NCBI RefSeq assembly: GCF_024298765.1
Contig: NZ_CP101210.1
Reading direction: 5' to 3' (one strand)
Length of the DNA stretch: 64,000 bases
Origin: Escherichia coli
Lineage (GTDB): Bacteria > Pseudomonadota > Gammaproteobacteria > Enterobacterales > Enterobacteriaceae
Under the pieces are notes generated by a model that saw only the letters and a list, made by a program, of their open reading frames with translations, had not been told where the DNA came from and did no database searches. Positions 210-64,000 of this stretch are shown one piece after another (the stretch's first letter is position 1; each line of letters begins with the position of its first letter). The position numbers and the translations under genes were made by a program.

Positions 210-256
210 TTTTTACCTGAGGGGGAGGTTATCCCCCTTAACAATCAGGAGTTTTT

Positions 257-3880: not shown

Positions 3881-4037
3881 GAATATTTTTTGGTAAGCGT
3901 CAAATATGCGCGTTCTGGCTGTGCGTAGCCGGAACCTGTGGGAGCACGATGCCGATAAGTGAAAGGCATCGTGCTATGAAGGAGGATTCTATCGATGTGG
4001 TCAATGGAAGACGGTTACCAGAGATAGGGCTTATGCA

Positions 4038-4073
4038 TAAAAAAATAAGCCCGTGTAAGGGAGATTACACAGG
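4038..4073 (-). terminator. putative Rho-independent terminator downstream of yegQ
   Basis: Inverted repeat ccgtgtaa...ttacacagg (4050-4073) followed on the minus strand by a T-rich run (plus strand aaaaaaataag). Confidence 0.4.
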
Positions 4074-4210
4074 CTAAGGAGGTGGTTCCTGGTACAGCTA
4101 GCATTTTATGGGTTATGTTTTTCAGCGAAACGGATGATAACCTTAATAAATGCAGCTGTATGTGATCGGTTTCTAAGAATTTTCCATCCGGGAAAAATAA
4201 TCGAAATTAA

Positions 4211-5572
4211 TCACTTACCGTGTGGGTTACGCGTGGTTTCCCCGGAGAAATTACGCATCAGCAGAGCGTAATTGAGCTCAAGATCCTGCGGGACCGGGAG
4301 CCACACAGTATAACCATCGCCTGGTGCGACCGGCATCGCTTCACCTTTGGCGTTTTCCATGTGCTCAAGGGTAAAGTTAATGTTGCCTTGCGGCGTCATC
4401 AGCTCAAGGCTGTCGCCAACGGAGAATTTATTTTTCACCGCTACCGCCGCGAGGTCCCCCTTGCGCTCACCGGTAAACTCACCAACAAACTGCTGGCGGT
4501 CAGAAACTGAATAACCGTATTCGTAGTTCTGATAATCGTCGTGAGTATGACGACGCAGGAAACCTTCGGTATAGCCACGATGCGCCAGACCTTCCAGAGT
4601 TTCCAGCAGGCTGGTATCGAACGGTTTGCCCGCAGCGGCGTCATCGATAGCTTTACGGTAAACCTGTGCGGTGCGTGCGCAATAGTAGAAAGATTTAGTA
4701 CGGCCTTCGATTTTCAGCGAATGCACGCCCATTTTGGTCAGGCGTTCTACATGGGCGATGGCGCGCAGATCTTTCGAGTTCATGATGTAAGTGCCGTGCT
4801 CATCTTCAAACGCGGTCATATACTCGCCCGGACGCTGGGCTTCTTCGATCATAAACACTTTGTCGGTTGGCGCGCCGATACCCAGCGTCGGCTCAACATT
4901 TTGCACCGGAATCGGCTCGTACTTGTGTACGATGTTGCCAACGTCATCTTCTTTCCCTTCCTGGACGTTGTACTCCCAGCGGCAGGCGTTGGTGCAGGTA
5001 CCCTGGTTCGGATCGCGCTTGTTGATATAGCCAGAGAGCAGGCAGCGACCGGAGTAGGCCATGCACAGTGCGCCGTGAACGAAGATCTCGATCTCCATAT
5101 CCGGCACCTGATTGCGGATCTCTTCAATCTCTTCCAGCGACAGCTCGCGAGAGAGGATCACGCGGGTCAGGCCCATTTGCTGCCAGAATTTCACCGTCGC
5201 CCAGTTTACGGCGTTAGCCTGCACCGAGAGGTGGATCGGCATTTCAGGGAAGTGCTCACGCACCAGCATAATCAGCCCTGGATCGGACATAATCAGCGCA
5301 TCCGGCCCCATTTCCACCACCGGTTTCAGGTCACGGATAAAGGTTTTCAGCTTGGCGTTGTGCGGTGCAATGTTGACCACGACATAAAACTTTTTCCCCA
5401 GCGCGTGGGCTTCATTGATGCCGAGCTGAAGATTTTCGTGGTTGAATTCGTTGTTGCGCACACGCAGGGAGTAACGCGGCTGGCCCGCATAAACAGCATC
5501 TGCGCCATAAGCGAAAGCGTAACGCATATTTTTCAGCGTTCCCGCCGGGGAAAGGAGTTCCGGTTTAAACAT
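4211..5572 (-). CDS. yegQ: peptidase U32 family protein YegQ
   Basis: 453 aa ORF; matches recalled YegQ (collagenase-like U32 peptidase family). Confidence 0.85.
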   Translation of the reverse strand: MFKPELLSPAGTLKNMRYAFAYGADAVYAGQPRYSLRVRNNEFNHENLQLGINEAHALGKKFYVVVNIAPHNAKLKTFIRDLKPVVEMGPDALIMSDPGLIMLVREHFPEMPIHLSVQANAVNWATVKFWQQMGLTRVILSRELSLEEIEEIRNQVPDMEIEIFVHGALCMAYSGRCLLSGYINKRDPNQGTCTNACRWEYNVQEGKEDDVGNIVHKYEPIPVQNVEPTLGIGAPTDKVFMIEEAQRPGEYMTAFEDEHGTYIMNSKDLRAIAHVERLTKMGVHSLKIEGRTKSFYYCARTAQVYRKAIDDAAAGKPFDTSLLETLEGLAHRGYTEGFLRRHTHDDYQNYEYGYSVSDRQQFVGEFTGERKGDLAAVAVKNKFSVGDSLELMTPQGNINFTLEHMENAKGEAMPVAPGDGYTVWLPVPQDLELNYALLMRNFSGETTRNPHGK

Positions 5573-5718
5573 AATTCTCTCGTTCTGATGACAGGTCAGA
5601 TCCGCTTCACCTGATGAAGCGGTTAGGGGAGTGCCCCCACTTTAAGGGCGGGCATTGTAGCGCTGTGGGGGGATCTGGTAAAGCGCCGGACGCCAACAAC
5701 CCACGCCCGGCATCGTAA

Positions 5719-6051
5719 TTACGTATTGTCTTTCACCGTCTGGCTTGTGCCATTGGCTTTAACGGAGGCAATCCCGGTTTCACGAGATTGCGCGGTGGCG
5801 TACATCTGGCTGGAGCCGATAATTTGATGATTAGCGGCTTTCAGATTGAAATAGAATTTGCCGTTACTTGCCGTTTTTTTCTCATAGCGTTCTTCTTGCG
5901 GGCTGTTGCTACGCACCGACGCGATGCCCTTTTCCGCAGAGGCTTTTGAGGTATAAAGCTCGCTGGTGAGGATAGTCTCACCATTGCCCGCTTTTAGCAC
6001 AAACCGGAACTGATTATCACTGCTCTTACTGAGTTCAAACCAACCAGCCAT
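5719..6051 (-). CDS. yegP: UPF0339 family protein YegP (tandem DUF1508 repeats)
   Basis: Two internal repeats (KAGNGETILTSELYTSKASAEKGIASV / KAANHQIIGSSQMYATAQSRETGIASV); 110 aa from the internal Met. Confidence 0.75.
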   Translation of the reverse strand: MAGWFELSKSSDNQFRFVLKAGNGETILTSELYTSKASAEKGIASVRSNSPQEERYEKKTASNGKFYFNLKAANHQIIGSSQMYATAQSRETGIASVKANGTSQTVKDNT

Positions 6052-6241
6052 AATGACTCCTTGATTGAAATTGTGTATCGAAAACAGCATCTAAAGGTGC
6101 TGTTTACCGATTAAAGTATGAGCGATTTTCTGATGCCTGCCAGGGCGGAGAGATAATGTCAGTTTGCTGACCATGCGTGGGATAATGTTGCCGGATCTGG
6201 TCTGAACGCCATCTCCGGCTAACAAAATAATGTCGCTAAAA

Positions 6242-6964
6242 CTAAACGATGCGGCAGGCGTCGGCTTCCCAGCGGTAACCGACGCCATAAACGGCGCGGA
6301 TAAATGACTGTTCGGCGTCGAGAGATTCCAGCTTGCGGCGCAGGTTTTTAATGTGGCTGTCGATGGTGCGGTCGGTTACTACGCGGTAGTCGTCATAAAG
6401 ATGATTGAGCAATTGCTCGCGGGAGAACACTTTTCCTGGTTCGTGAGAGAGCGTTTTCAGCAGACGAAATTCCGCAGGCGTCAGGTCAAGCATTTTACCG
6501 CGCCATGAAGCCTGAAAACGACCTTCGTCGATAATCAACGGGCTTTCAGCATCCTGTTGCTGCAACTCGCGCTGCGGTTTGCAACGGCGCAAAATGGTTT
6601 TGACGCGCGCTACCACTTCCCGTGGGCTGTACGGCTTACAGATATAATCATCTGCGCCAATCTCCAGCCCCAGCAGGCGATCGATCTCTTCGATTTTTGC
6701 CGTCACCATCACGATCGGAATGTCAGAAAAACGACGAATTTCCCGGCACAGCGTCAGGCCATCGGTGCCAGGGAGCATCAGATCTAACAGGATCAGATCC
6801 GGTGGTGTCTGGCGCACATACGGCAGTACCTGATCGCCGTGGCTGATAAGCGTCGGCGCATAGCTCGCAGCACGCAGATAATCAATGAGCAACTGCCCCA
6901 GCTTCGGTTCATCTTCCACGATCAAAATACGCGGTGTGTTTTCGTCGATTGGTAACTCGGTCAT
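6242..6964 (-). CDS. baeR: two-component response regulator BaeR (OmpR family)
   Basis: 240 aa; receiver domain (ILIVEDEP...[11 protein letters not shown]) plus winged-helix C-terminus; overlaps baeS stop. Confidence 0.9.
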
Positions 6965-8364
6965 ACTTCTCTCTGTAAATCCCGTTCCAGCGGTAACTCT
7001 ACTGTAATGCTTACCCCGCCAAAAGGCGAATGGGCAGCAATAATGCGACCATTATGTGCTTCAACAATGTTCAGGCAAATCGCCAGCCCCAGCCCGGAAC
7101 CGCCGCTGGCACGGTTGCGGGAACCTTCGGTGCGATAAAAACGTTCAAACAATTTTTGTAGCTGATCGTCACTGACACCTGGCGCACTGTCGGCAAAGGT
7201 CAGTCGCACCGTTTTGTCGCGCTGCCCGGCAGAGATTTGCAGGCTGCCGCCGCTGTCAGTGTAGCGCAGGCTGTTTTCCAGTAAGTTATTGAATAACTGC
7301 ATTAAACGGTCGCGATCGCCAAATACGGTAATACTGTCTGGCAGGGAAAATTGCAGTTTCAGGCCACGACTGGCGAATCGTTCGCGAAATGCGCCGCCCG
7401 CCACTTCCAGCAGTGGGATCAAATCTACCGGTGCTTTTTGATAGGCGAGAGCGCCTTCATCAGACATCGACAACTGATGGAGATCGTCAACCAGTTTGGT
7501 CAGTGTACCGACCTCCGCCTGTAAAGACGCCACCGTCTCCGGCGTGAATTTACGCACGCCATCCTGAATGGCTTCCAGTTCACCGCGCAGCACCGCTAAT
7601 GGCGTACGCAGTTCGTGAGAAATATCGGCCATAAAATCGCGCCGCATTTGCTGGTTTTTCTCCAGTGTGCTGGCAAGCTGGTTGAAGTCTTGCGCCAGTT
7701 TGCCCAGTTCATCTTCACTGGTGGGCGTTACGCGGGTAGTGAAATCGCCCGCCGCCAGTTTGTGCGTGCCATCGACAAGTCGTTTTACCGGTGCCAGTAA
7801 ACCGCGCGCCAGCAGAAAAGTGGCAAGTGCCGCGAGTAACGTTGCCAGGGCGACAATCAACCAGCTGGTTTGCCGCTGTTGTTTATCGAAATTGATATCA
7901 GTATTGCGCGTTAACCGCTCAACGGGGGAGGCGATCACCGCGCCCACTTCCGCACCGTTGACCAGAATGGGTCGCCGTGTACCGTCAGGTGGAATCGGCG
8001 CTCGTGGACCAACCAGCACTTTGTTGTTTTGATCAACCACCCAGAACTGGGTACGCCAGCCGTGCGGTGGCATACCCGGGCCGGGTTTATCTTCCGAATT
8101 ATCGTGTTCAAATGAACGCAGGATCTGAAAGACAAAGCGATCATTGTTGCGCAGGAAGCGCCAGTTGCCATGCTGCGCATACTGCTCGCCAAGCGCATCA
8201 CTTAACAGTTGTAATCGCTGTTCATTACCATGCTTGATGTAATCAATAAAGCCACGCTCAAAACTGATACGCACCGCCCAGTGCATACTGATCAGCAAGA
8301 CAATGCAGGTGGCGAAAATCGCCAGAAACAGTTTGCCGGTAATACCAGGTCGCCAGAACTTCAT
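6961..8364 (-). CDS. baeS: envelope-stress sensor histidine kinase BaeS
   Basis: 467 aa; two TM segments, HAMP, H-box ([11 protein letters not shown]), ATPase G-boxes. Confidence 0.9.
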
Positions 8365-9776
8365 TGCGCGCTCCTTTTTCGCCGCGAAATAGCTACATTT
8401 TGATGCGTATCGTTCGGCACTCTGGCAAAGATGAACGCCGGAAGGGCGATGATAAACGCCATGCTAAGCCAGGTGTACATAAAGACGGTTTGTGTGGTGC
8501 CGCTGTCGACGCTGACATGCTGCGAACCAAAAAGTCCCAGCAACAGCCCGGCGATGGTGACGCCGATACTCATCGACAATTGCATAATCATCGACAGCAG
8601 GCTGTTTCCGCTGCTCGCCAGATTGTCCGGGAGATCTTTCAGCGTCAGGGTGTTCATGGAGGAGAAACGCGTCGAGTTGACCATCCCTTGTAAAAACAGG
8701 ACGAACGGCAAAACGTAGTACCAGCCCAGCAGAGCGGTAGTCATAAACAACAGGGTGACCAGCGACAGACCCAGCGTGGTCGCTACCAGTACCCGACGAT
8801 AACCAAAGCGATTCACCACCTGTACCACAATTCGCTTCATTCCCATGCTGCCAAGCACCATCGGGATCATCATCAGTCCGGCATGAAACGGCGAGAAACC
8901 GAGGCCAATTTGCAGGAAAACCGGTGTCATAAAGGGCAACATGCCACTGCCAATACGTCCGGCAAAGCTCCCCGCCAGGCCCAGCGAAAAGGTACGAGTA
9001 CGGAACAGTTTCAGACTGAACAGGGCACGGTTGTTATTTCTGGCGTGCAGCAGATAAAGCACCAGTGCCACCACGCCAACTGCGACCAGGCCTGCAATCG
9101 TCAGCGGCGATAAACCTGTACCTTTACTGCCGTCCAGCGCCAGGGTTAATACCGCCATGCCAACCGCCAGCAATAAAAATCCGGAGAGATCAAAGCGCCG
9201 CGTCTGCATGGTGTAGTTTGGCATTAACAGCAATGTGGCGATCGCACCGATAATCCCCACCGGAATGTTGATCAAAAAGATACAGTGCCACGATGCGTAC
9301 TCCACCAGCAGACCGCCGAGCGCCGGACCGAGCAGCGGACCGACCTGACCGGGTAACGTGACAAAGGTCATCGCCGCCATATATTGCTCGCGCGGTACGA
9401 TTTTCATCACCGTCAATCTGCCGACCGGCACCATCATCGCGCCGCCAACGCCCTGTAACGCGCGTGCCAGCAACAGTTCGTTCAGCGTGCCGGAAAGCGC
9501 GCAAAACAGTGAACCGAGAGTAAACAGCACGATGGCGGTAAAGAAAATATTGCGCACGCCGACTTTGTCCGCCAGCCAGCCGCTGGCGGGCAGCATCACC
9601 GCCACGGTCAGCACATAAGAGACAATGACCATGTGCATATGCAACGGACTTTCCCCGAGGCTTTGCGCCATTGAGGGAAGGGCGGTGTTTACGATGGTGG
9701 TGTCCAGCGACTGCATAAAGAAGCCGAAAGCCACAATCCACAATTGCCAACGGGTGCTGTCGGGAAGATCTGTCAT
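8361..9776 (-). CDS. mdtD: MFS transporter MdtD
   Basis: 471 aa, 14-TM MFS-like; position between mdtC and baeS. Confidence 0.9.
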
Positions 9777-21535: not shown

Positions 21536-22730
<1,195 letters not shown>

Positions 22731-45508: not shown

Positions 45509-46630
45509 ATGTCAAAAGTCGCTCTCATCACCGGTGTAACCGGACAAGACGGTTCTTACCTGGCAGAGTTTCTGCTGGAAAAAGGTTACGAGGTGCATGG
45601 TATTAAGCGTCGTGCATCGTCATTCAACACCGAGCGCGTGGATCACATTTATCAGGATCCGCACACCTGCAACCCGAAATTCCATCTGCATTATGGCGAC
45701 CTGAGTGATACCTCCAACCTGACACGCATTTTGCGTGAAGTGCAGCCGGATGAAGTTTACAACCTGGGCGCAATGAGCCACGTTGCGGTTTCTTTTGAGT
45801 CACCGGAATATACCGCAGACGTCGATGCGATGGGTACGCTGCGCCTGCTCGAGGCGATCCGCTTCCTCGGTCTGGAAAAGAAAACCCGTTTCTATCAGGC
45901 TTCCACCTCTGAACTGTATGGTCTGGTGCAGGAAATTCCGCAGAAAGAAACCACGCCGTTCTACCCACGCTCTCCGTATGCTGTCGCCAAACTGTACGCC
46001 TACTGGATCACCGTTAACTACCGCGAATCCTACGGCATGTACGCCTGTAACGGTATTCTCTTCAACCATGAATCCCCGCGCCGCGGCGAAACCTTCGTTA
46101 CCCGCAAAATCACCCGCGCAATCGCCAATATCGCCCAGGGGCTGGAGTCGTGCCTGTACCTCGGCAATATGGATTCCCTGCGTGACTGGGGCCACGCCAA
46201 AGACTACGTAAAAATGCAGTGGATGATGCTGCAACAGGAACAGCCGGAAGATTTCGTTATCGCGACCGGCGTTCAGTACTCCGTGCGTCAGTTCGTGGAA
46301 ATGGCAGCGGCACAGCTGGGCATCAAACTGCGCTTTGAAGGCACGGGTGTTGAAGAGAAGGGCATTGTGGTTTCCGTCACCGGGCATGACGCGCCGGGCG
46401 TTAAACCGGGTGATGTGATTATCGCCGTTGATCCGCGTTACTTCCGTCCGGCTGAAGTTGAAACGCTGCTCGGCGACCCGACCAAAGCGCACGAAAAACT
46501 GGGCTGGAAACCGGAAATCACCCTCAGAGAGATGGTGTCTGAAATGGTGGCTAATGACCTCGAAGCGGCGAAAAAACACTCTCTGCTGAAATCTCACGGC
46601 TACGACGTGGCGATCGCGCTGGAGTCATAA
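45509..46630 (+). CDS. gmd: GDP-mannose 4,6-dehydratase
   Basis: 373 aa; SDR GxxGxxG ([10 protein letters not shown]) and YxxxK. Confidence 0.95.
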
Positions 46631-46632
46631 GC

Positions 46633-47598
46633 ATGAGTAAACAACGCATTTTTATCGCTGGCCATCGTGGGATGGTCGGTTCTGCCATCAGGCGGCAGCT
46701 CAAACAGCGCGGTGATGTGGAACTGGTATTACGCACCCGCGACGAGCTGAACCTGCTGGACAGCCGCGCGGTGCATGATTTCTTTGCCAGCGAACGCATT
46801 GACCAGGTCTATCTGGCGGCGGCGAAAGTGGGCGGCATTGTTGCCAACAACACCTATCCGGCGGATTTCATCTACCAGAACATGATGATTGAGAGCAACA
46901 TCATTCACGCCGCGCATCAGAACGACGTGAACAAACTGCTGTTTCTCGGATCGTCCTGTATCTACCCGAAACTGGCAAAACAGCCGATGGCAGAAAGCGA
47001 GTTATTGCAGGGCACGCTGGAGCCGACCAACGAGCCTTACGCCATTGCCAAAATCGCCGGGATCAAACTGTGCGAATCTTACAACCGCCAGTATGGACGC
47101 GATTACCGCTCAGTCATGCCGACCAACCTGTACGGGCCGCACGACAACTTCCACCCGAGTAACTCGCACGTGATCCCTGCATTGCTGCGTCGCTTCCACG
47201 AGGCGACGGCACAGAATGCGCCGGACGTGGTGGTGTGGGGCAGCGGTACACCGATGCGCGAATTTCTGCACGTTGATGATATGGCAGCGGCGAGCATTCA
47301 TGTGATGGAGCTGGCGCACGAAGTCTGGCAGGAGAACACCCGGCCGATGCTGTCGCACATTAACGTCGGCACGGGCGTTGACTGCACTATCCGTGAGCTG
47401 GCGCAAACCATCGCCAAAGTGGTGGGTTACAAAGGTCGGGTGGTTTTTGATGCCAGCAAACCGGATGGTACGCCGCGCAAACTGCTGGATGTGACGCGCC
47501 TGCATCAGCTTGGCTGGTATCACGAAATCTCACTGGAAGCGGGGCTTGCCAGCACTTACCTGTGGTTCCTTGAGAATCAAGACCGCTTTCGGGGGTAA
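46633..47598 (+). CDS. fcl: GDP-L-fucose synthase (GDP-4-keto-6-deoxymannose 3,5-epimerase/4-reductase)
   Basis: 321 aa; SDR fold ([10 protein letters not shown]). Confidence 0.95.
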
Positions 47599-48080
47599 TG
47601 ATGTTTTTACGTCAGGAAGACTTTGCCACGGTAGTGCGCTCCACCCCGCTTGTCTCCCTCGACTTTATTGTTGAGAACAGTCGCGGCGAGTTTCTGCTTG
47701 GCAAAAGAACCAACCGCCCGGCGCAGGGTTACTGGTTTGTGCCGGGAGGGCGCGTGCAGAAAGACGAAACGCTGGAAGCCGCATTTGAGCGGCTGACGAT
47801 GGCGGAACTGGGGCTGCGTCTGCCGATAACAGCAGGCCAGTTTTACGGTGTCTGGCAGCACTTTTATGACGATAACTTCTCCGGCACGGATTTCACCACT
47901 CACTATGTGGTGCTCGGTTTTCGCTTCAGAGTAGCGGAAGAAGAACTGTTACTGCCGGATGAGCAGCATGACGATTACCGCTGGCTGACGCCGGACGCAC
48001 TGCTCGCCAGTGACAATGTTCACGCTAACAGCCGCGCCTATTTTCTCGCTGAGAAGCGTGCCGGAGTACCCGGATTATGA
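47598..48080 (+). CDS. gmm: GDP-mannose mannosyl hydrolase (Nudix)
   Basis: 160 aa; Nudix-like; start overlaps fcl stop. Confidence 0.9.
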
Positions 48081-52437: not shown

Positions 52438-53832
52438 ATGACAAATCTAAAAAAGCGCGAGCGAGCGAAAACCAATGCATCGTTAATCTCTATGGTGCAA
52501 CGCTTTTCAGATATCACCATCATGTTTGCCGGACTATGGCTGGTTTGCGAAGTCAGCGGACTGTCATTCCTCTACATGCACCTGTTGGTGGCGCTGATTA
52601 CGCTGGTGGTGTTCCAGATGCTGGGCGGCATCACCGATTTTTATCGCTCATGGCGCGGTGTTCGGGCAGCGACAGAATTTGCCCTGTTGCTACAAAACTG
52701 GACCTTAAGCGTGATTTTCAGCGCCGGACTGGTGGCGTTCAACAATGATTTCGACACGCAACTGAAAATCTGGCTGGCGTGGTATGGGCTGACCAGTATC
52801 GGACTGGTGGTTTGCCGTTCATGTATTCGTATTGGGGCGGGCTGGCTGCGTAATCATGGCTATAACAAGCGCATGGTCGCCGTAGCGGGGGATTTAGCCG
52901 CCGGACAAATGCTGATGGAGAGCTTCCGTAATCAGCCGTGGTTAGGGTTTGAAGTGGTGGGGGTTTACCACGACCCGAAACCGGGCGGCGTTTCTAACGA
53001 CTGGGCGGGCAATCTTCAACAGCTGGTCGAGGACGCGAAAGCGGGCAAGATTCATAACGTCTATATCGCGATGCAAATGTGCGACGGCGCGCGAGTGAAA
53101 AAACTGGTCCATCAATTGGCGGACACCACCTGTTCGGTGTTGCTGATCCCCGATGTCTTTACCTTCAACATTCTCCATTCACGTCTTGAAGAGATGAACG
53201 GCGTTCCGGTGGTGCCGCTTTACGACACGCCGCTTTCCGGGGTTAACCGCCTGCTCAAACGTGCGGAAGACATTGTGCTGGCGACGCTTATTCTGCTGCT
53301 GATCTCCCCGGTGCTGTGCTGTATTGCGCTGGCGGTGAAACTCAGTTCACCAGGGCCGGTTATTTTCCGCCAGACTCGCTATGGCATGGATGGCAAACCG
53401 ATCAAAGTGTGGAAGTTCCGTTCGATGAAAGTGATGGAGAACGACAAAGTGGTGACTCAGGCGACGCAGAACGATCCGCGCGTCACCAAAGTGGGGAACT
53501 TTCTGCGCCGCACCTCGCTGGATGAACTGCCGCAGTTTATCAATGTGCTGACCGGGGGGATGTCGATTGTGGGGCCACGTCCGCACGCAGTAGCGCATAA
53601 CGAACAGTATCGCCAGCTCATTGAAGGCTACATGCTGCGCCATAAAGTGAAACCGGGCATTACTGGCTGGGCGCAGATTAACGGCTGGCGCGGCGAAACC
53701 GACACGCTGGAGAAAATGGAAAAACGCGTCGAGTTCGACCTTGAGTACATCCGCGAATGGAGCGTCTGGTTCGATATCAAAATCGTTTTCCTGACGGTGT
53801 TCAAAGGTTTCGTTAACAAAGCGGCATATTGA
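52438..53832 (+). CDS. wcaJ: UDP-glucose:undecaprenyl-phosphate glucose-1-phosphate transferase WcaJ
   Basis: 464 aa; polyisoprenyl-phosphate hexose-1-phosphate transferase C-terminal domain. Confidence 0.9.
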   Translation: MTNLKKRERAKTNASLISMVQRFSDITIMFAGLWLVCEVSGLSFLYMHLLVALITLVVFQMLGGITDFYRSWRGVRAATEFALLLQNWTLSVIFSAGLVAFNNDFDTQLKIWLAWYGLTSIGLVVCRSCIRIGAGWLRNHGYNKRMVAVAGDLAAGQMLMESFRNQPWLGFEVVGVYHDPKPGGVSNDWAGNLQQLVEDAKAGKIHNVYIAMQMCDGARVKKLVHQLADTTCSVLLIPDVFTFNILHSRLEEMNGVPVVPLYDTPLSGVNRLLKRAEDIVLATLILLLISPVLCCIALAVKLSSPGPVIFRQTRYGMDGKPIKVWKFRSMKVMENDKVVTQATQNDPRVTKVGNFLRRTSLDELPQFINVLTGGMSIVGPRPHAVAHNEQYRQLIEGYMLRHKVKPGITGWAQINGWRGETDTLEKMEKRVEFDLEYIREWSVWFDIKIVFLTVFKGFVNKAAY

Positions 53833-53833
53833 T

Positions 53834-55312
53834 ATGAGCTTACGTGAAAAAACCATCAGCGGCGCGAAGTGGTCGGCGATTGCCACGGTGATCATCATCG
53901 GCCTCGGGCTGGTGCAGATGACCGTGCTGGCGCGGATTATCGACAACCACCAGTTCGGCCTGCTGACTGTGTCGCTGGTGATTATCGCGCTGGCAGATAC
54001 GCTTTCTGACTTTGGTATCGCTAACTCGATTATTCAGCGAAAAGAAATCAGTCACCTTGAACTCACCACGTTGTACTGGCTGAACGTCGGGCTGGGGATC
54101 GTGGTGTGCGTGGCGGTGTTTTTGTTGAGTGATCTCATCGGCGACGTGCTGAATAACCCGGACCTGGCACCGTTGATTAAAACATTGTCGCTGGCGTTTG
54201 TGGTGATCCCCCACGGGCAACAGTTCCGCGCGTTGATGCAGAAGGAGCTGGAGTTCAACAAAATCGGCATGATCGAAACCAGCGCGGTACTGGCGGGCTT
54301 CACTTTTACGGTGGTTAGCGCCCATTTCTGGCCGCTGGCGATGACCGCGATCCTCGGTTATCTGGTCAATAGTGCGGTAAGAACGCTGCTGTTTGGCTAC
54401 TTTGGTCGCAAAATTTATCGCCCCGGTCTGCATTTCTCGCTGGCGTCGGTGGCACCGAACTTACGCTTTGGTGCCTGGCTGACGGCGGACAGCATCATCA
54501 ACTATCTCAATACCAACCTTTCAACGCTGGTGCTGGCGCGTATTCTCGGCGCGGGCGTGGCAGGGGGATACAACCTGGCGTACAACGTGGCCGTTGTGCC
54601 ACCGATGAAGCTGAACCCAATCATCACCCGCGTGTTGTTTCCGGCATTCGCCAAAATTCAGGACGATACCGAAAAGCTGCGCGTTAACTTCTACAAGCTG
54701 CTGTCGGTAGTGGGGATTATCAACTTTCCGGCGCTGCTGGGGCTGATGGTGGTGTCGAATAACTTTGTACCGCTGGTCTTTGGTGAGAAGTGGAACAGCA
54801 TTATTCCGGTGCTGCAATTGCTGTGTGTGGTGGGTCTGCTGCGTTCCGTAGGTAACCCGATTGGTTCGCTGCTGATGGCGAAAGCGCGGGTCGATATCAG
54901 CTTTAAATTCAACGTATTCAAAACCTTTCTGTTTATTCCGGCGATTGTTATTGGTGGGCAGATGGCGGGCGCAATTGGCGTCACGCTCGGCTTCCTGTTG
55001 GTACAGATTATCAACACCATTCTGAGTTACTTCGTGATGATTAAACCGGTTCTTGGTTCCAGTTATCGCCAGTACATCCTGAGTTTGTGGCTGCCGTTTT
55101 ATCTCTCGTTGCCGACGCTGGTGGTCAGTTATGCGCTGGGCATTGTGCTGAAAGGGCAACTGGCGCTGGGGATGCTGCTGGCGGTGCAAATAGCCGCGGG
55201 CGTGCTGGCGTTTGTGGTGATGATTGTGCTGTCGCGCCATCCGCTGGTGGTGGAAGTGAAGCGTCAGTTTTGTCGCAGCGAAAAAATGAAAATGCTTTTA
55301 CGGGCGGGGTGA
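53834..55312 (+). CDS. wzxC: colanic acid repeat-unit flippase WzxC
   Basis: 492 aa polytopic membrane protein. Confidence 0.9.
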   Translation: MSLREKTISGAKWSAIATVIIIGLGLVQMTVLARIIDNHQFGLLTVSLVIIALADTLSDFGIANSIIQRKEISHLELTTLYWLNVGLGIVVCVAVFLLSDLIGDVLNNPDLAPLIKTLSLAFVVIPHGQQFRALMQKELEFNKIGMIETSAVLAGFTFTVVSAHFWPLAMTAILGYLVNSAVRTLLFGYFGRKIYRPGLHFSLASVAPNLRFGAWLTADSIINYLNTNLSTLVLARILGAGVAGGYNLAYNVAVVPPMKLNPIITRVLFPAFAKIQDDTEKLRVNFYKLLSVVGIINFPALLGLMVVSNNFVPLVFGEKWNSIIPVLQLLCVVGLLRSVGNPIGSLLMAKARVDISFKFNVFKTFLFIPAIVIGGQMAGAIGVTLGFLLVQIINTILSYFVMIKPVLGSSYRQYILSLWLPFYLSLPTLVVSYALGIVLKGQLALGMLLAVQIAAGVLAFVVMIVLSRHPLVVEVKRQFCRSEKMKMLLRAG

Positions 55313-55340
55313 GTTGCTGTTTTCGGTTCCGACAACGGTT

Positions 55341-55526
55341 GCCGGATGCGGCGTAAAACGCCTTATCCATCCTACGGTTCCGTGCTCGGGACCTGTAGGC
55401 CTGATAAGACGCGTCAGCGTCGCATCAGGCACTGAATGCCGGATGCGGCGTGAACGCCTTATCCGGCCTACGGTTCTGTGCTCGGGTCTTGTAGGCCTGA
55501 TAAGACGCGTCAGCGTCGCATCAGGC
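55341..55526. repeat. tandem BIME/REP cluster (two ~95-bp units)
   Basis: Two near-identical units each holding gccggatgcggcgt(g/a)aacgccttatcc and tgtaggcctgataagacgcgtcagcgtcgcatcaggc. Confidence 0.8.
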
Positions 55527-55586
55527 AAAAAGCGGCAACGAACAAAACAAACACAGCCCACCTGGCATCAAATTTATGAGGAAAAA

Positions 55587-56867
55587 ATGAAATTACTTAT
55601 TCTGGGCAACCACACTTGCGGCAATCGTGGCGACAGCGCCATCCTGCGCGGCTTACTTGATGCCATCAACATCCTCAATCCACACGCCGAAGTGGACGTG
55701 ATGAGCCGCTATCCGGTCAGTTCTTCCTGGCTGCTCAACCGCCCGGTAATGGGCGATCCGCTGTTCCTGCAAATGAAACAACACAACAGCGCGGCGGGCG
55801 TTGTCGGGCGCGTTAAAAAAGTCCTCCGTCGCCGCTACCAGCATCAGGTATTGCTCTCACGCGTCACCGACACTGGCAAGCTGCGTAATATCGCCATCGC
55901 CCAGGGATTCACCGACTTCGTGCGCCTGCTGTCAGATTACGACGCCATTATTCAGGTCGGCGGATCGTTTTTTGTCGATCTCTACGGCGTGCCGCAGTTT
56001 GAACATGCACTTTGCACGTTTATGGCGAAAAAGCCGCTGTTTATGATTGGTCACAGCGTCGGTCCCTTCCAGGATGAGCAATTTAACCAACTGGCGAACT
56101 ACGTTTTTGGTCACTGCGACGCGCTGATCCTGCGCGAATCGGTCAGCCTTGATCTGATGAAACGCAGCAATATCACTACCGCAAAAGTGGAACATGGCGT
56201 CGATACCGCGTGGCTGGTCGATCACCACACAGAAGAATTCACCGCCAGCTATGCCGTTCAACACTGGCTGGACGTTGCCGCACAACAGAAAACGGTGGCA
56301 ATTACCCTGCGCGAACTGGCACCGTTCGACAAACGTCTCGGCACCACTCAACAAGCGTATGAAAAAGCCTTTGCCGGGGTGGTCAATCGCATTCTCGACG
56401 AAGGCTATCAGGTTATTGCGCTCTCCACCTGTACGGGCATCGACAGCTATAATAAAGACGACCGCATGGTGGCGCTCAATCTTCGCCAGCACATCAGCGA
56501 TCCTGCCCGTTACCACGTGGTGATGGATGAACTCAACGATCTGGAAATGGGCAAAATTCTCGGAGCCTGTCAACTCACCGTCGGTACGCGTCTGCACTCA
56601 GCCATTATCTCGATGAATTTCTCCACTCCGGCAATTGCCATCAACTACGAACATAAATCCGCCGGGATTATGCAGCAGCTGGGGCTGCCAGAGATGGCGA
56701 TCGATATCCGTCATTTATTAGATGGCAGCCTGCAAGCGATGGTTGCGGATACCTTAGGCCAGCTTCCGGCGCTGAACGCACGACTTAGCGAAGCCGTCAG
56801 TCGCGAACGTCAGACGGGAATGCAGATGGTGCAATCTGTGCTTGAGCGCATCGGGGAGGTGAAATGA
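55587..56867 (+). CDS. wcaK: colanic acid pyruvyl transferase WcaK
   Basis: 426 aa from internal Met MKLLILGNHTCGNRGD with RBS (gaggaaaaa); the 517-aa ORF-track extension reads through the REP array. Confidence 0.9.
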   Translation: MKLLILGNHTCGNRGDSAILRGLLDAINILNPHAEVDVMSRYPVSSSWLLNRPVMGDPLFLQMKQHNSAAGVVGRVKKVLRRRYQHQVLLSRVTDTGKLRNIAIAQGFTDFVRLLSDYDAIIQVGGSFFVDLYGVPQFEHALCTFMAKKPLFMIGHSVGPFQDEQFNQLANYVFGHCDALILRESVSLDLMKRSNITTAKVEHGVDTAWLVDHHTEEFTASYAVQHWLDVAAQQKTVAITLRELAPFDKRLGTTQQAYEKAFAGVVNRILDEGYQVIALSTCTGIDSYNKDDRMVALNLRQHISDPARYHVVMDELNDLEMGKILGACQLTVGTRLHSAIISMNFSTPAIAINYEHKSAGIMQQLGLPEMAIDIRHLLDGSLQAMVADTLGQLPALNARLSEAVSRERQTGMQMVQSVLERIGEVK

Positions 56868-58084
56868 AGGTCGGTTTCTTCTTATTGAAATTTCCGCTGT
56901 CGTCAGAAACCTTCGTTCTTAACCAAATCACTGCGTTTATTGATATGGGCTTTGAAGTGGAGATTGTCGCGTTGCAAAAAGGCGATACAGAGAACACCCA
57001 CGCGGCTTGGACGAAATACAACCTTGCTGCCAGAACCCGCTGGTTACAGGACGAACCTACGGGCAAAGTGGCGAAACTGCGCCACCGCGCCAGCCAGACC
57101 TTACGCGGCATTCATCGTAAAAATACCTGGCAGGCGCTCAACCTCAAACGCTATGGTGCCGAGTCGCGGAACCTGATTTTGTCTGCCATTTGCGGCCAGG
57201 TCGCAACCCCGTTTCATGCCGATGTGTTCATCGCTCATTTTGGACCTGCGGGGGTAACCGCAGCAAAACTACGGGAACTGGGTGTCATTCGCGGCAAAAT
57301 TGCCACCATTTTCCACGGCATTGATATCTCCAGTCGGGAAGTGCTCAACCGCTACACCCCCGAATATCAACAACTGTTTCGCCGTGGCGACCTGATGCTA
57401 CCGATAAGCGATCTGTGGGCCGGAAGGCTGCAAAAAATGGGCTGCCCGAGGGAAAAAATCGCCGTATCGCGTATGGGTGTGGACATGACGCGCTTTAGCC
57501 CGCGTCCGGTGAAAGCGCCTGCAACGCCGCTGGAAATCATTTCCGTCGCACGCTTAACCGAGAAAAAAGGCCTGCATGTGGCGATCGAAGCCTGCCGTCA
57601 GTTGAAAGAGCAGGGTGTGGCATTTCGCTATCGCATCCTCGGCATTGGCCCGTGGGAACGACGCTTGCGCACGCTCATCGAACAATATCAACTGGAAGAT
57701 GTGGTGGAGATGCCGGGCTTTAAACCGAGCCATGAAGTGAAGGCGATGCTCGACGACGCGGATGTCTTCCTCCTGCCATCGGTAACGGGCGCGGACGGTG
57801 ATATGGAAGGTATTCCGGTGGCGCTGATGGAAGCGATGGCGGTCGGCATTCCGGTGGTTTCTACTCTGCATAGCGGAATACCAGAGCTGGTCGAGGCCGA
57901 TAAATCCGGCTGGCTGGTGCCTGAGAACGATGCTCGCGCACTGGCGCAACGACTGGCGGCGTTTAGCCAACTGGACACTGACGAACTGGCTCCGGTTATC
58001 AAACGTGCTCGCGAAAAAGTCGAACACGATTTTAACCAGCAGGTGATCAATCGAGAACTCGCCAGCTTGCTGCAAGCTTTATAG
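56864..58084 (+). CDS. wcaL: colanic acid glycosyltransferase WcaL (GT4)
   Basis: 406 aa; start overlaps wcaK stop. Confidence 0.9.
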
Positions 58085-58094
58085 AGGAGAACGC

Positions 58095-59489
58095 ATGCCA
58101 TTTAAAACACTCTCCCGACGCACCTTCCTGACGGCAAGCTCGGCGCTTGCCTTCCTCCATACCCCTTTCGCTCGCGCACTTCCCGCCCGACAAAGCGTTA
58201 ACATTAACGACTACAACCCACACGACTGGATCGCCTCATTTAAACAAGCCTTCAGCGAAGGGCGAACGGTCGTCGTGCCTGCCGGATTGGTTTGTGACAA
58301 TATCAACACCGGCATCTTCATTCCTCCCGGCAAAACGTTACACATCCTTGGAAGCCTGCGCGGCAATGGCAGAGGGCGATTTGTCTTACAGGACGGCAGC
58401 CAGGTGACAGGGGAGGAGGGCGGCAGTATGCATAACATCACCCTGGATGTGCGTGGCTCTGACTGCACCATCAAAGGGCTGACGATGAGCGGCTTTGGTC
58501 CGGTAACGCAGATTTATATCGGCGGCAAAAACAAACGAGTAATGCGTAACCTCTCCATCGATAACCTGACCGTTAGCCACGCTAATTACGCCATCTTACG
58601 CCAGGGATTTCATAACCAGATTATCGGTGCCAACATCACCAACTGTAAATTTAGTGATTTACAGGGCGACGCCATTGAATGGAACGTGGCGATTAACGAC
58701 CGTGATATTTTGATATCTGACCATGTCATCGAGCGCATCAACTGTACCAACGGCAAAATCAACTGGGGTATCGGCATAGGCCTTGCGGGAAGTACCTACG
58801 ATAATAACTACCCGGAAGACCAGGCAGTGAAAAACTTTGTCGTGGCGAATATCACGGGATCGGATTGTCGGCAGTTGATCCATGTTGAAAATGGTAAACA
58901 TTTTGTTATTCGTAATATCAAAGCCCGCAATATCACGCCGGATTTCAGTAAGAAAGCAGGTATTGATAACGCGACGGTCGCTATTTACGGTTGTGACAAT
59001 TTCGTGATTGATAATATTGAAATGATTAATAGCGCCGGAATGTTAATCGGCTATGGGGTAATTAAAGGCACATATCTCTCGATACCGCAAAATTTCCGAG
59101 TGAATAATATTCAACTGGATAATACCCACCTTGCTTACAAATTGCGCGGCATCCAAATCTCTGCCGGGAATGCCGTCTCCTTTGTGGCACTGACTAACAT
59201 TGAGATGAAGCGTGCGTCGCTGGAGTTACACAACAAACCGCAACATCTTTTTATGCGAAATATCAAGGTGATGCAGGAATCCTCAGTTGGACCCGCATTG
59301 AGCATGAACTTTGACATGCGCAAAGACGTTCGCGGCGTATTTATGGCGAAAAAAGAAACACTACTGTCTCTTGCAAATGTTCATGCGGTGAATGAAAAAG
59401 GGCAAAGCTCCGTCGATATCGACAGGATTAATCACCATATTGTTAATGTGGAAAAGATTAACTTTAGATTGCCGGAACGGAGGGAGTAG
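58095..59489 (+). CDS. wcaM: colanic acid biosynthesis protein WcaM (secreted, beta-helix-like)
   Basis: 464 aa; Tat-like signal ([14 protein letters not shown]). Confidence 0.85.
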
Positions 59490-59646
59490 ATTTGCGACCA
59501 TTCATAAACTTACTGGATATAATGTTCTAAAAGATTATAATCCTCACACTAACTGTTAAAGCTGGGGCTGGGCAGCATTGACTACTCAGGGAAGGTACTC
59601 ATCTTTATCTTGTGTTTCTTACGTAACAACCAGACTAAAGTGATTT

Positions 59647-60642
59647 ATGAACGATAACGTTTTGCTCATAGGAGCTTCCGGATTCGTAGGAACCCGACTA
59701 CTTGAAACGGCAATTGCTGACTTTAATATCAAGAACCTGGACAAACAGCAGAGCCACTTTTATCCAGAAATCACACAGATTGGCGATGTTCGCGATCAAC
59801 AGGCACTCGACCAGGCATTAGTTGGTTTTGACACTGTTGTACTACTGGCAGCGGAACACCGCGATGACGTCAGCCCTACTTCTCTCTATTATGATGTCAA
59901 CGTTCAGGGTACCCGCAATGTGCTGGCGGCCATGGAAAAAAATGGCGTTAAAAATATCATCTTTACCAGTTCCGTTGCTGTTTATGGTTTGAACAAACAT
60001 AACCCTGACGAAAACCATCCACACGACCCTTTCAACCACTACGGCAAAAGTAAGTGGCAGGCAGAGGAAGTGCTGCGTGAATGGTATAACAAAGCACCAA
60101 CAGAACGTTCATTAACCATCATCCGTCCTACCGTTATCTTCGGTGAACGCAACCGCGGTAACGTCTATAACTTGCTGAAACAGATCGCTGGCGGCAAGTT
60201 TATGATGGTGGGCGCAGGGACTAACTATAAGTCCATGGCTTATGTTGGAAACATTGTTGAGTTTATCAAGTACAAACTGAAGAATGTTGCCGCAGGTTAT
60301 GAGGTTTATAACTACGTTGATAAGCCAGACCTGAACATGAACCAGTTGGTTGCTGAAGTTGAACAAAGTCTGAACAAAAAGATCCCTTCTATGCACTTGC
60401 CTTACCCACTAGGAATGCTGGGTGGATATTGCTTTGATATCCTGAGCAAAATTACGGGCAAAAAATACGCTGTCAGCTCTGTGCGCGTGAAAAAGTTCTG
60501 CGCAACTACACAGTTTGACGCAACGAAAGTGCATTCGTCAGGTTTTGTTGCACCGTATACGCTGTCGCAAGGTCTGGATCGAACTCTGCAGTATGAATTC
60601 GTCCATGCCAAAAAAGACGACATAACGTTTGTTTCTGAGTAA
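59647..60642 (+). CDS. NAD-dependent epimerase/dehydratase-family protein, Gnu/Z3206-like (GlcNAc-P-P-undecaprenol 4-epimerase-like)
   Basis: 331 aa; extended-SDR motifs (LLIGASGFVG, YGKSK); sits between wcaM and galF as I recall for Z3206 in O157-type loci. Confidence 0.65.
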   Translation: MNDNVLLIGASGFVGTRLLETAIADFNIKNLDKQQSHFYPEITQIGDVRDQQALDQALVGFDTVVLLAAEHRDDVSPTSLYYDVNVQGTRNVLAAMEKNGVKNIIFTSSVAVYGLNKHNPDENHPHDPFNHYGKSKWQAEEVLREWYNKAPTERSLTIIRPTVIFGERNRGNVYNLLKQIAGGKFMMVGAGTNYKSMAYVGNIVEFIKYKLKNVAAGYEVYNYVDKPDLNMNQLVAEVEQSLNKKIPSMHLPYPLGMLGGYCFDILSKITGKKYAVSSVRVKKFCATTQFDATKVHSSGFVAPYTLSQGLDRTLQYEFVHAKKDDITFVSE

Positions 60643-60884
60643 TGCAGACGAGTCAGAGAAAAAAGGACTAGGTTGGACTACGATTATTCGGAAAGAGGTA
60701 CTGATTAAATTATCAGTATGTGGATTTCCGAGTAATCCGAGTAACCCAGATGCTGATGGTGTGTAGTGTTATCGTAAGGTTTAAGCAAAGTTATGCGGAA
60801 CTAAGCTTTGGTATATAGCCATAACGTTTGGCTAACCTATGGCAATAATTTACGCACTATCAGCCACTTAGAGGTAGGAAAAGA

Positions 60885-61778
60885 ATGACGAATTTAAAAG
60901 CAGTTATACCGGTAGCAGGTCTTGGGATGCATATGTTGCCTGCCACTAAGGCGATTCCCAAAGAGATGCTACCGATCGTCGACAAGCCAATGATTCAGTA
61001 CATTGTTGACGAGATTGTGGCTGCAGGGATCAAAGAAATCCTCCTGGTAACTCATGCGTCCAAGAACGCGGTCGAAAACCACTTCGACACCTCTTATGAA
61101 TTAGAATCTCTCCTTGAACAGCGCGTGAAGCGTCAGCTGCTGGCGGAAGTGCAGTCCATCTGTCCGCCTGGCGTGACCATTATGAACGTGCGTCAGGGTG
61201 AACCTTTAGGTTTGGGCCACTCCATTTTATGTGCACGACCCGCCATTGGTGACAACCCATTTGTCGTGGTGCTGCCAGACGTTGTGATCGATGACGCCAG
61301 CGCCGACCCGCTGCGCTACAACCTTGCTGCCATGATTGCGCGCTTCAACGAAACGGGCCGCAGCCAGGTGCTGGCAAAACGTATGCCGGGTGACCTCTCT
61401 GAATACTCCGTCATTCAGACCAAAGAACCGCTGGACCGTGAAGGCAAAGTCAGCCGCATTGTTGAATTTATCGAAAAACCGGATCAGCCGCAGACGCTGG
61501 ACTCAGACATCATGGCCGTAGGTCGTTATGTGCTTTCTGCTGATATTTGGCCGGAACTGGAACGTACTCAGCCTGGTGCATGGGGGCGTATTCAGCTTAC
61601 TGATGCTATTGCCGAACTGGCGAAAAAACAGTCCGTTGATGCCATGCTGATGACTGGAGACAGCTACGACTGCGGTAAAAAAATGGGCTATATGCAGGCG
61701 TTTGTGAAGTATGGGCTGCGCAACCTGAAAGAAGGGGCGAAGTTCCGCAAAGGTATTGAGAAGGTGTTAAGTGAATAA
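60885..61778 (+). CDS. galF: UTP-glucose-1-phosphate uridylyltransferase subunit GalF
   Basis: 297 aa; matches recalled GalF ([43 protein letters not shown]...). Confidence 0.95.
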
Positions 61779-62011
61779 AAATTGATCATCCATATATGGT
61801 GGATTGAATAAAAATAGAACTGCAGTGAACATTCAAAAGAAAAGATGATTACGTTATAAGAATGTTCCTGTCTTTTATTGAAAGTATTTAATAACAATAA
61901 GTTACAGCATGTATCGCTCGTACATAGATTTTCCTTGTATTTGACTTCGTTTGATTAGACTATTGGAAAATAGTGAAAAGTATTAAATAATTAGTACCTA
62001 TGATTCATTTT

Positions 62012-62050
62012 CAGTGAGTTGGTAACTGTTAAGCCAAGGGCGGTAGCGTG
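62012..62050 (+). promoter_or_regulatory. JUMPstart element with ops site (O-antigen operon leader)
   Basis: 39-bp cagtgagttggtaactgttaagccaagggcggtagcgtg; ops GGCGGTAGCGTG at 62039-62050. Confidence 0.85.
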
Positions 62051-62085
62051 TGTTTTGATCCTACCCACGTAATATGGACACAGGC

Positions 62086-62841
62086 CTAAGCGAGGTTCTG
62101 GTTTTCAAATTGTTCCGGACTGAGGCCGCCACACCAACTGTGCCGCCGCCACCGATTGTAATCACATTCGATATAATTAAACACCGTTGCCCGCATTATT
62201 TCCCGGCTGATAAAGTGTTCTCCATGGATACATTCCACTTTCAGCGAATGAAAGAAGCTTTCCACGCAGGCATTATCGTAGCAGCAACCTTTTGCGCTCA
62301 TACTTCCACGCAGATTATGCCGCTTCAGTTGCGCCGTCATGCGTGGCGACATTGACCAGCCAATAACGGCACGTGACCACAGGTCAATGACCACTGCCAG
62401 ATACAGCCAGCCTTCATCTGTACGTAAGTACGTGATGTCTCCTGCCCACTTCTGGTTCGGGCCACTGGCGTAAAAATCCTGCTCCAACAGATTTTCTGAC
62501 ACAGGCAGGCCGTGTGCGCGGTAGCTGACCGGGCTGAACTTCCGGGAGGCCTTTGCCCTCAGTCCCTGACGGCGCAGGCTTGCCGCCACGGTTTTTACGT
62601 TAAAGGGGTAACCCTGAGCACGCAGTTCATCCGTCAGGCGTGGGGCACCGTAACGCTGTTTTGACCGGGTAAAAGCCGCGAGGACAACGCTGTCGCAGTG
62701 TTGGCGGAACTGCTGACGCGTGCTTATCCTTGTCCGCCGCTGACACCACGTATACCAGCCGCTGCGGGCCACCCGGAGCACGCGGCACATTGCTTTGATG
62801 CTGAACTCAGCCTGATGTTTTTCAATAAAGACATACTTCAT
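62086..62841 (-). pseudogene. insF: IS3 OrfB transposase with ~37-aa internal deletion
   Basis: 251 aa against ~288 expected; reads ...[20 protein letters not shown]..., missing the block that I recall contains HTDRGGQY. Confidence 0.65.
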
Positions 62842-63137
62842 TTCAGGCGCTTCGCGAAGTATGTCGCGGCCTTTTGGAGGATAGCCAGCTCTTCATCCCG
62901 TTCTGCCAGCTGGCGTTTGAGACGTGCAATCTCGGTAGACATCTCCAGTTCACGTTCAGAAGACGTCTGCTGATTTTGCTGTTTACTGCGCCAGTTGTAG
63001 AGCTGTGATTCATACAGGCTGAGTTCACGGGCTGCGGCAGTAACACCGATGCGTTCAGCAAGCTTCAGGGCTTCACTGCGAAATTCAGGCGAATGCTGTT
63101 TACGGGGTTTTTTACTGGTTGATACTGTTTTTGTCAT
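62838..63137 (-). CDS. insE: IS3 OrfA (HTH protein, 99 aa)
   Basis: [32 protein letters not shown]... matches recalled IS3 OrfA. Confidence 0.85.
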
Positions 63138-63237
63138 GTGAGTCACCTCTGACTGAGAGTTTACTCACTTAGCCGCGTGTCCACTATTGCTGGGTAAGAT
63201 CATTTTTCTCTCAATCCTCATGATAAAGGAGGTTTAT

Positions 63238-64000
63238 ATGGTGATTTTCGTAACAGGCGGTGCAGGATATATTGGATCCCATACCATACTTGAGTTACTT
63301 AATAATGGTCATGATGCCGTTTCGATAGATAATTTTGCCAATTCCTCTATAGAATCATTAAAAAGAGTAGAGCAAATAACTAATAAGAAAATTATTTCTT
63401 ATCAAGGTGATATCCGTGATAAAAATCTACTTGATGAGATTTTTTCAAGACATCATATCGATGCTGTAATTCATTTTGCATCGTTAAAATCTGTAGGTGA
63501 GTCAAAGTTAAAGCCCTTAGAGTATTATTCTAATAATGTTGGTGGAACTTTAGTATTACTTGAATGCATGAAGAGATATAACATTAATAAAATGATATTT
63601 AGCTCTTCTGCTACTGTTTATGGGAATAACAGTATCCCTCCCCATACGGAAGATAGACGAATTGGTGAAACTACAAACCCATATGGGACATCGAAGTTTA
63701 TAATAGAAATGATTTTGAGTGATTATTGTGATAGCGATAATAATAAATCAGTAATTGCACTACGTTATTTTAATCCAATCGGAGCACATAAGTCCGGGAT
63801 GATTGGTGAAAATCCTAACGGGATTCCTAATAATCTGGTTCCTTATATATCTAAAGTTGCACAAAATCAACTTCCTGTATTAAATATTTATGGCAACGAT
63901 TATCCAACTAAAGATGGTACAGGAGTAAGAGACTATATACATGTCTGTGATTTGGCTAAAGGGCATGTTAAAGCATTAGAATATATGTTTTTAAATGATG
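63238..64000 (+). CDS. gne: UDP-sugar 4-epimerase (GalE/Gne family), first gene of an AT-rich O-antigen cluster; 3' end beyond the window
   Basis: Translation MVIFVTGGAGYIGSHTILELL...YGTSK...; GxxGxxG and YxxxK SDR motifs; RBS aaaggagg; visibly AT-rich. Confidence 0.8.
   Translation, partial: MVIFVTGGAGYIGSHTILELLNNGHDAVSIDNFANSSIESLKRVEQITNKKIISYQGDIRDKNLLDEIFSRHHIDAVIHFASLKSVGESKLKPLEYYSNNVGGTLVLLECMKRYNINKMIFSSSATVYGNNSIPPHTEDRRIGETTNPYGTSKFIIEMILSDYCDSDNNKSVIALRYFNPIGAHKSGMIGENPNGIPNNLVPYISKVAQNQLPVLNIYGNDYPTKDGTGVRDYIHVCDLAKGHVKALEYMFLND

Follow-up and report, generated by a model that had tools for sequence, protein, structure and literature searches.

A probable O128-type O-antigen junction in Escherichia coli with two epimerase genes of different lineage and an internally deleted IS3 in its leader

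We analysed a stretch of 64,000 nucleotides from an Escherichia coli chromosome (contig NZ_CP101210.1; hereafter the window), which spans the gat and mdtABCD-baeSR region, the colanic acid (wca) cluster and the beginning of the O-antigen locus. By gene content and sequence, the window ends in the left junction of a Wzx/Wzy-type O-antigen locus of the O86/O90/O127/O128 group. The best explanation of the whole, to which we assign a probability of about 85%, is that this is an O128-type junction at which two epimerases, Gnu and Gne, would serve two separate routes to N-acetylgalactosamine (GalNAc), that the insertion sequence (IS) IS3 in its leader is defective and would be read through with the help of RfaH, and that the junction has spread between strains by recombination. 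The gnu-galF-gne layout and its biochemical rationale are an already published arrangement, and an AT-rich beginning is textbook knowledge for O-antigen clusters. The only departures from the published arrangement are the presence of IS3 in the leader and the deletion inside that element. The features at this end of the window are as follows.

58095-59489: wcaM, from the list of open reading frames (ORFs).
59647-60642, plus strand: gnu (Z3206-type), predicted GlcNAc-P-P-undecaprenol 4-epimerase (GlcNAc, N-acetylglucosamine), 331 aa, intact; from the ORF list and Pfam.
60885-61778, plus strand: galF, 297 aa; from TIGR01105 and NF007516.
61963-61991, plus strand: candidate O-antigen operon promoter, a weak sigma-70 match (TTGGAA-17-AATAAT), plausible by position only.
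62012-62050, plus strand: JUMPstart element (Rfam RF01707), with the operon polarity suppressor (ops) sequence GGCGGTAGCGTG at 62039-62050.
62053-62055: left copy of the target-site duplication TTT.
62056-63202, minus strand: IS3 with a 111-bp internal deletion; from its terminal inverted repeats and NF033516.
62326-62335: deletion junction of IS3, the single copy left of the 10-bp direct repeat CAGTTGCGCC.
63203-63205: right copy of the target-site duplication TTT.
63226-63232, plus strand: Shine-Dalgarno sequence AAGGAGG of gne, read directly.
63238-64000, plus strand: gne, named galE by the Prokaryotic Genome Annotation Pipeline (PGAP), which opens the O-antigen cluster; 254 of its 339 codons are inside the window, the rest being cut off by the window end.

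An earlier note on this DNA, made from the letters alone, had proposed an extended short-chain dehydrogenase/reductase (SDR) epimerase of the Gnu/Z3206 kind upstream of galF and an AT-rich GalE/Gne-like 4-epimerase from 63238 after the IS3, and both proposals are borne out. Gnu is an SDR epimerase (Pfam PF01370, Epimerase, 3.8e-30) whose translation contains the nicotinamide adenine dinucleotide (NAD) site G9-A-S-G12-F-V-G15 (GxxGxxG) and the catalytic motif Y132-G-K-S-K136 (YxxxK). The gne frame is still open at 64000, 254 codons after its ATG at 63238, and although truncated its product scored 331.4 bits against the GalE model TIGR01179 (cut-off 262.3) and has the motifs G7xxG10xxG13, S124 and Y149xxxK153. 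Between them, GalF was identified by an NCBIfam profile search in which its TIGR01105 score of 687.8 bits exceeded the curated equivalog cut-off of 659.2, with NF007516 at 665.5 bits. Gnu and Gne share 27% identity confined to the N-terminal 177 residues (the Rossmann part) and, judged from their sequences, are different epimerase lineages.

Against a window average of 51.7% GC, gnu has 45.1% and galF 51.6%; the value is 30.7% in the spacer between galF and IS3, 53.0% in IS3 itself and 32.5% in the gne fragment. GC at third codon positions is 21.7% in gne versus 56.7% in galF. The GC deficit of gne far exceeds the sampling noise expected for 760 bp. The composition break that the earlier note saw at the start of the O-antigen locus is therefore real as far as the low GC of gne is concerned, but it is not one clean step at gne, as GC has already fallen below the genome average within wcaM (42.9% over its 3' half) and in gnu.

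The published arrangement that this junction follows is that of O86, in which gne1, at the O157 locus ahead of the cluster, encodes a protein identical to the O157 enzyme, acting on undecaprenyl diphosphate-linked GlcNAc (Und-PP-GlcNAc), while gne2, the first gene past galF, supplies uridine diphosphate (UDP)-GalNAc for a second GalNAc (Cunneen et al., PMC3682973). In O157, as in O86, gnu is located between wcaM and galF, and the O86, O90, O127 and O128 antigens each have two main-chain GalNAc residues for which both gnu and gne are needed (PMC3682973, Table S2). The pathway that we propose draws its steps from this published work: WecA would make Und-PP-GlcNAc, Gnu would epimerise it on the lipid to Und-PP-GalNAc, and Gne would interconvert UDP-GlcNAc and UDP-GalNAc to provide the donor for the second, internal GalNAc. 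Relative to O86, the order wcaM - gnu - galF - JUMPstart - gne - GT4 (a family 4 glycosyltransferase) - gmd - fcl - gmm - manC - manB is the same, as is the logic by which one GalNAc would be formed on the lipid and a second drawn from UDP-GalNAc. The differences are that the serogroup-specific 3' half would here be that of O128, based on relatives, and that IS3 lies between ops and gne.

The assignment of Gnu draws on its relatives and its position. The gene sits outside the O-antigen cluster, with wcaM and galF as its neighbours, and has the same layout in the annotated genomes with which we compared it. The exact Gnu protein is widespread, its specific source name being N-acetyl-alpha-D-glucosaminyl-diphospho-ditrans,octacis-undecaprenol 4-epimerase. 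On grouping at 90% identity it falls in a cluster of 2299 members in which the specific names are Und-PP-GlcNAc 4-epimerase, the name that PGAP also uses for it in every related genome. It is one or two residues from the copies in O86, O128 and O90/O127-type genomes, with two separating it from the copy in the O86 genome. The O157 lipid-linked epimerase was reportedly described by Rush et al. in 2010. We predict that Gnu belongs to clade D, the Z3206 type acting on Und-PP-GlcNAc, with clade membership being assigned through the near-identity to the O86 copy and the published identity of O86 Gne1 with the O157 enzyme (PMC3682973).

A separate observation concerns the gnu gene of a near-clonal draft genome, L007 (L007:6410-7405), which has 2 mismatches to the window in 10.76 kb. 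A C-to-T change at the equivalent of window position 59812 makes codon 56 a stop (Q56*), and L007 has therefore lost the lipid-linked epimerase on which the first sugar of O128 should depend.

The gne fragment is 100% identical to the gne of the O128 genomes LHM10-1 and CP52E and of the near-clone L007, and its product differs from O86 Gne at 4 of 254 residues. We considered whether the gene at 63238 could instead encode a second UDP-glucose/UDP-galactose 4-epimerase (GalE), which would give UDP-galactose for the galactose of the O unit and not UDP-GalNAc. The protein does pass the GalE equivalog TIGR01179, PGAP calls the gene GalE in every genome examined, and GalE and Gne are not reliably separable within clade A (PMC3682973). 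We nevertheless regard this as improbable, based on the fact that the O86 orthologue, only those four residues away, is needed for O antigen and has been assigned as a UDP-GlcNAc epimerase, that O86 has no other source for its second GalNAc and that gne is listed as a requirement for O128 (PMC3682973, Table S2). The gatekeeper residue of the active site also argues against a dedicated GalE: Ser300, which lies outside the window and is taken from LHM10-1, identical to the window over the first 254 codons, aligns with Cys307 of human GALE. We take E. coli GalE to have a bulky Tyr299 at this position, and the small Ser300 fits an enzyme that would accept N-acetylated substrates. A bifunctional enzyme using both substrate pairs would fit both views. 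The interconversion of UDP-GlcNAc and UDP-GalNAc that we favour for Gne would follow by analogy from the genetic argument made for O86 Gne2 (PMC3682973).

In O128 clusters there is also a second GalE/Gne-like epimerase gene, between wzy and gnd (L001:34439-35458), in which the gatekeeper residue is Cys (RRSGDIAECW). Its divergence from the 5' gne is too great for megablast, which gave one place per genome.

The serogroup of the locus is almost certainly O128 or OX38, judging from the haplotype of the junction and the clusters of its closest relatives. The gne allele family occurs in 112 of the 5426 complete E. coli genomes searched, and 14 of these genomes match the gne fragment at 99% or more. 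Serotyping on the fragment alone was rejected, as the 14 include both O128 and O90/O127-type clusters; the earlier statement that the serotype cannot be called thus holds for the gne fragment by itself, but the haplotype together with the IS3 marker identifies near-clones with an O128 cluster. When galF, the spacer and gne were searched as one haplotype, with the IS removed from the query in silico, only 2 of the 5426 complete genomes matched at 99.9%, the next best reaching 98.2%. These two are LHM10-1 (pig, China) and CP52E (human, Thailand); in each, IS3 occupies the same site and wzx and wzy are of the O128 family. Ten loci were retrieved with the exact full-length Gne protein, all with IS3 immediately upstream, and every locus that was long enough had an O128-type order with a 185-aa acetyltransferase (103 aa in L006), a 480-aa Wzx and a family 11 glycosyltransferase (GT11) fucosyltransferase.

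Among draft genomes, L006 and L012 (1 mismatch each) and L007 (2 mismatches) match window positions 53238-64000 end to end, including the deleted IS3 (99.98-99.99%). In L007, the 11 kb that follow the end of the window are 99.94% identical to the O128 cluster of LHM10-1; they include wzx and stop before wzy. The LHM10-1 cluster in turn differs at only 28 of 14609 nt from that of the serotyped O128:H27 strain 90-9281 (CP024243), with every gene intact; the gne fragment of the window is 2 nt from this reference, the leader of which has no IS3 and the galF of which is about 3% diverged. The combination of the IS3-tagged haplotype with the O128 cluster downstream of it in near-clones is the reason for which we call the locus O128. 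The OX38 cluster is 98-99.9% identical to that of O128 (DebRoy et al., PMC4732683), so the genotype cannot tell these two apart.

It might be argued that the downstream cluster is that of another member of the group sharing this module (O90/O127 or O86), or a hybrid. The gne fragment is only 2 nt from O90/O127-type alleles, the same distance as from other O128 alleles, and 12 nt from O86 (98.4% identical); the group shares the order gne - glycosyltransferase - gmd-fcl-gmm - manC-manB; and the near-clone L006 indicates that rearranged versions exist. With IS3 upstream of gne in 10 of 10 exact-Gne loci, an O128-type order in all those long enough, and the 11 kb of O128 cluster in L007, we find a serogroup other than O128 very improbable.

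The earlier note had used the IS3 element, at 62056-63202, as a landmark, and had made too little of its position after JUMPstart and ops and of its internal deletion. The element begins 5 bp past ops and ends 35 bp ahead of the gne start codon. It is bounded by 39-nt imperfect terminal inverted repeats (62056-62094 and 63164-63202) and by the 3-bp target duplication, and removal of 62056-63205 (IS3 and one TTT) gives exactly the empty site of strain S1, GGCGGTAGCGTGTGTTTTTCTCTC. Its transposase matches NF033516 (transpos_IS3) at 265 bits, and both ORFs, an intact orfA (62838-63146) and a remnant of orfB (62086-62841), are on the minus strand, antisense to the O-antigen operon. The 39-nt repeats, 3-bp duplication and intact orfA are those of IS3, an element of 1258 bp in which orfA and orfB are joined by programmed -1 frameshifting. 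The length is only 1147 bp, however: relative to the element that LHM10-1 has at this site, 111 bp have been lost between two repeats of CAGTTGCGCC, with a single mismatch elsewhere. The deletion is in frame and removes 37 residues of OrfB, including HTDRGGQY, so that the element has no complete OrfB DDE (Asp-Asp-Glu) domain and the Pfam rve match is limited to profile positions 2-51 of 102.

The HTDRGGQY segment presumably carries the second Asp of the DDE triad of the IS3 family. With this catalytic residue lost, the copy would be non-autonomous though its ends are intact, and on its sequence we classify the element in the window as a defective, non-autonomous IS3 derivative. The deletion most likely arose in place, in an element that was full-length when it inserted. 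The reverse order, with the deletion preceding the insertion, is unlikely since a full-length copy with the identical site and target duplication, and 1 mismatch, is present in LHM10-1, CP52E and L009. IS elements in and around O-antigen clusters are commonplace (PMC4732683).

The same 111-bp deletion junction (62309-62352) was also found in 7 other E. coli records, 3 bovine chromosomes and 4 plasmids of about 130 kb, at unrelated loci, which implies either that the deletion recurs between the 10-bp repeats or that a defective variant is circulating. These matches were obtained with a 44-bp query that detects only a contiguous junction, as a 140-bp query was uninformative, with two-piece matches to full-length IS3 being tied.

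The leader into which IS3 inserted contains a full-length, 39-nt JUMPstart element on the non-template strand, including GGCGGTAGnnTG (RF01707, 52.5 bits versus a gathering score of 35, E 2.8e-10), the sole match in an Rfam scan of 59400-64000. The candidate sigma-70 promoter at 61963-61991 is about 20 bp upstream of JUMPstart, and is one of 3 such sites in the region where 3.5 are expected by chance. We propose that the operon promoter would be situated in the galF-gne spacer, upstream of JUMPstart, and that RfaH would load onto RNA polymerase at JUMPstart/ops. IS3 inserted antisense past ops and most likely lost 111 bp between its 10-bp repeats later, and the RfaH-modified polymerase would read through the 1.15-kb insert. 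By analogy with other RfaH-controlled operons, it is most likely that IS3 is read through in this way and that O antigen is still made.

This proposal has to be weighed against the possibility that IS3 is polar. The promoter and ops would then be split from gne by 1.15 kb, transcription of the O128 genes would be lost or much reduced, and the strain would be O-rough or low in O antigen, with a decaying cluster. IS3 does separate ops from gne, the first gene, and a consensus-only scan, which returned no more sites than in shuffled sequence, found no outward promoter on the plus strand within it or at its gne-proximal end. The same scan found no terminator-like hairpin on the plus strand of IS3, which is evidence for the other side. 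Further support for read-through comes from the cluster genes downstream, which are intact in the complete IS3-bearing genomes (14 of 14) and near-identical to those of the serotyped O128:H27 strain. The IS3-tagged block has moved into at least four flanking backgrounds, which is less likely for a dead locus, though hitch-hiking is possible. In addition, RfaH, once loaded at a single leader ops, is retained on the polymerase through whole, multi-kb transcription units, where it counters Rho and, on AT-rich operons, H-NS (PMC9765446).

Several observations weigh against our explanation, some of them in favour of polarity. The plus-strand transcript of IS3 would be untranslated and is C-rich over the first 600 nt of the insert (approximately 62000-62600; GC skew about -0.1). 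Untranslated, C-rich RNA is the kind on which Rho acts. Lesions in near-clones, namely the gnu stop codon of L007 and, in L006, a truncated acetyltransferase with a colanic-like hybrid segment, could reflect relaxed selection on O antigen. For the two other parts of the explanation, no NCBIfam model reached its curated cut-off for Gnu, the activity of which was named through near-identity to proteins that carry the name of the O157 enzyme, and the window stops at codon 254 of gne, so that the O128 call depends on the wzx and wzy of relatives and not on its own. Taking both sides together, we regard loss of O128 expression through a polar IS3 as possible but unlikely, and retain read-through as our explanation.

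Rather tentatively, and with some doubt, we also raise the idea that the immobilised IS3 is now a lasting component of the O128 leader and alters expression, for example by greatly increasing its dependence on RfaH or by making it lower or heterogeneous through Rho; the tagged variant has nevertheless spread by recombination to several lineages. A long RfaH/ops-controlled operon with a distant ops is known in hlyR-IS2-hlyCABD of plasmid pHly152. Like such operons, the locus described here has a single leader ops upstream of an AT-rich envelope operon, but in this case the distance from ops to the first gene has been increased from 35 bp to about 1.19 kb by a recent IS insertion.

The suggestion that the O-antigen locus was horizontally acquired is supported by the low GC of gne, by a patchy distribution and by breakpoints that differ across backgrounds. 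While the flanks are present in nearly all of the 5426 complete genomes, gnu is found in 1314 and the gne family, as given above, in 112. The O128 cluster is itself a mosaic of GC contents, with 33% for gne and GT4, 52-57% for gmd-fcl-gmm, 38% for manC, 54% for manB and 28-31% for the serogroup-specific genes. Among the genomes with the IS3-tagged O128 block, the left crossovers are located at about 60.77 kb (LHM10-1, CP52E and L009), about 60.87 kb (L005 and L011) and about 58.8 kb (L010). The block is thus flanked by at least four different backgrounds and has left crossovers that vary, which implies that it spreads by homologous recombination, and sequence comparison thus shows the galF-JUMPstart-IS3-O128 block to move between strains through recombination in the wcaM-gnu-galF flank.

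Three further observations concern the colanic acid genes. In L006 (L006:14174-19438) a colanic-like gmm-wcaI-cpsB-cpsG segment, 98% identical to the wca genes of the window itself, lies inside the O128 cluster, in which the O-acetyltransferase is truncated (103 aa); this hybrid may be a real recombinant or an assembly chimera. The colanic gmd-fcl genes (window 45509-48044) and their O128 counterparts (L001:22931-25466), 17 kb apart, share about 97% identity, which is why draft assemblies break there, and 17 of the 28 differences between the two O128 clusters compared above lie in gmd, a pattern that suggests gene conversion between the two loci. Lastly, the best match to the colanic region (36000-60700) among the 5426 genomes is 98.5%, versus 99.2% for the first 25 kb of the window, and this divergence is consistent with heavy recombination near the O-antigen locus.

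Elsewhere in the window, an IS5 of 1195 bp (21536-22730), with a 326-aa transposase and a target duplication of TTAG, separates yegJ from yegI and is missing from strain LWY6, which is otherwise 99.5% identical. An IS150 at approximately 17.8-19.3 kb, downstream of mdtA among the ibs type I toxin sequences, is common to the window and LWY6, based on a contiguous alignment. An IS621 found in LWY6 between asmA and yegH is absent from the window. The spacer between wzxC and wcaK (approximately 55314-55600) contains a long TTG-started ORF upstream of wcaK in which the motif GLIRRVSVASG occurs twice, and its length differs by strain, from about 70 to 370 bp in the loci examined. This repeat resembles what we take to be tandem repetitive extragenic palindromic elements of the REP/BIME (bacterial interspersed mosaic element) kind.

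These findings indicate that an O128/OX38 genotype can be assigned to a truncated locus from a haplotype and a rare IS marker. Typing of this kind would be useful for fragmented assemblies, many of which break within this IS3 or the gmd repeat. The IS3-tagged O128 block would also be a handy natural marker for the transfer of O antigens between lineages. If IS3 has indeed become part of the leader in the way tentatively raised above, the locus would serve as a natural experiment on the reach of anti-termination by RfaH-modified polymerase and on the sequences that it can cross. The IS3-tagged leader also offers a natural construct for the study of RfaH read-through.

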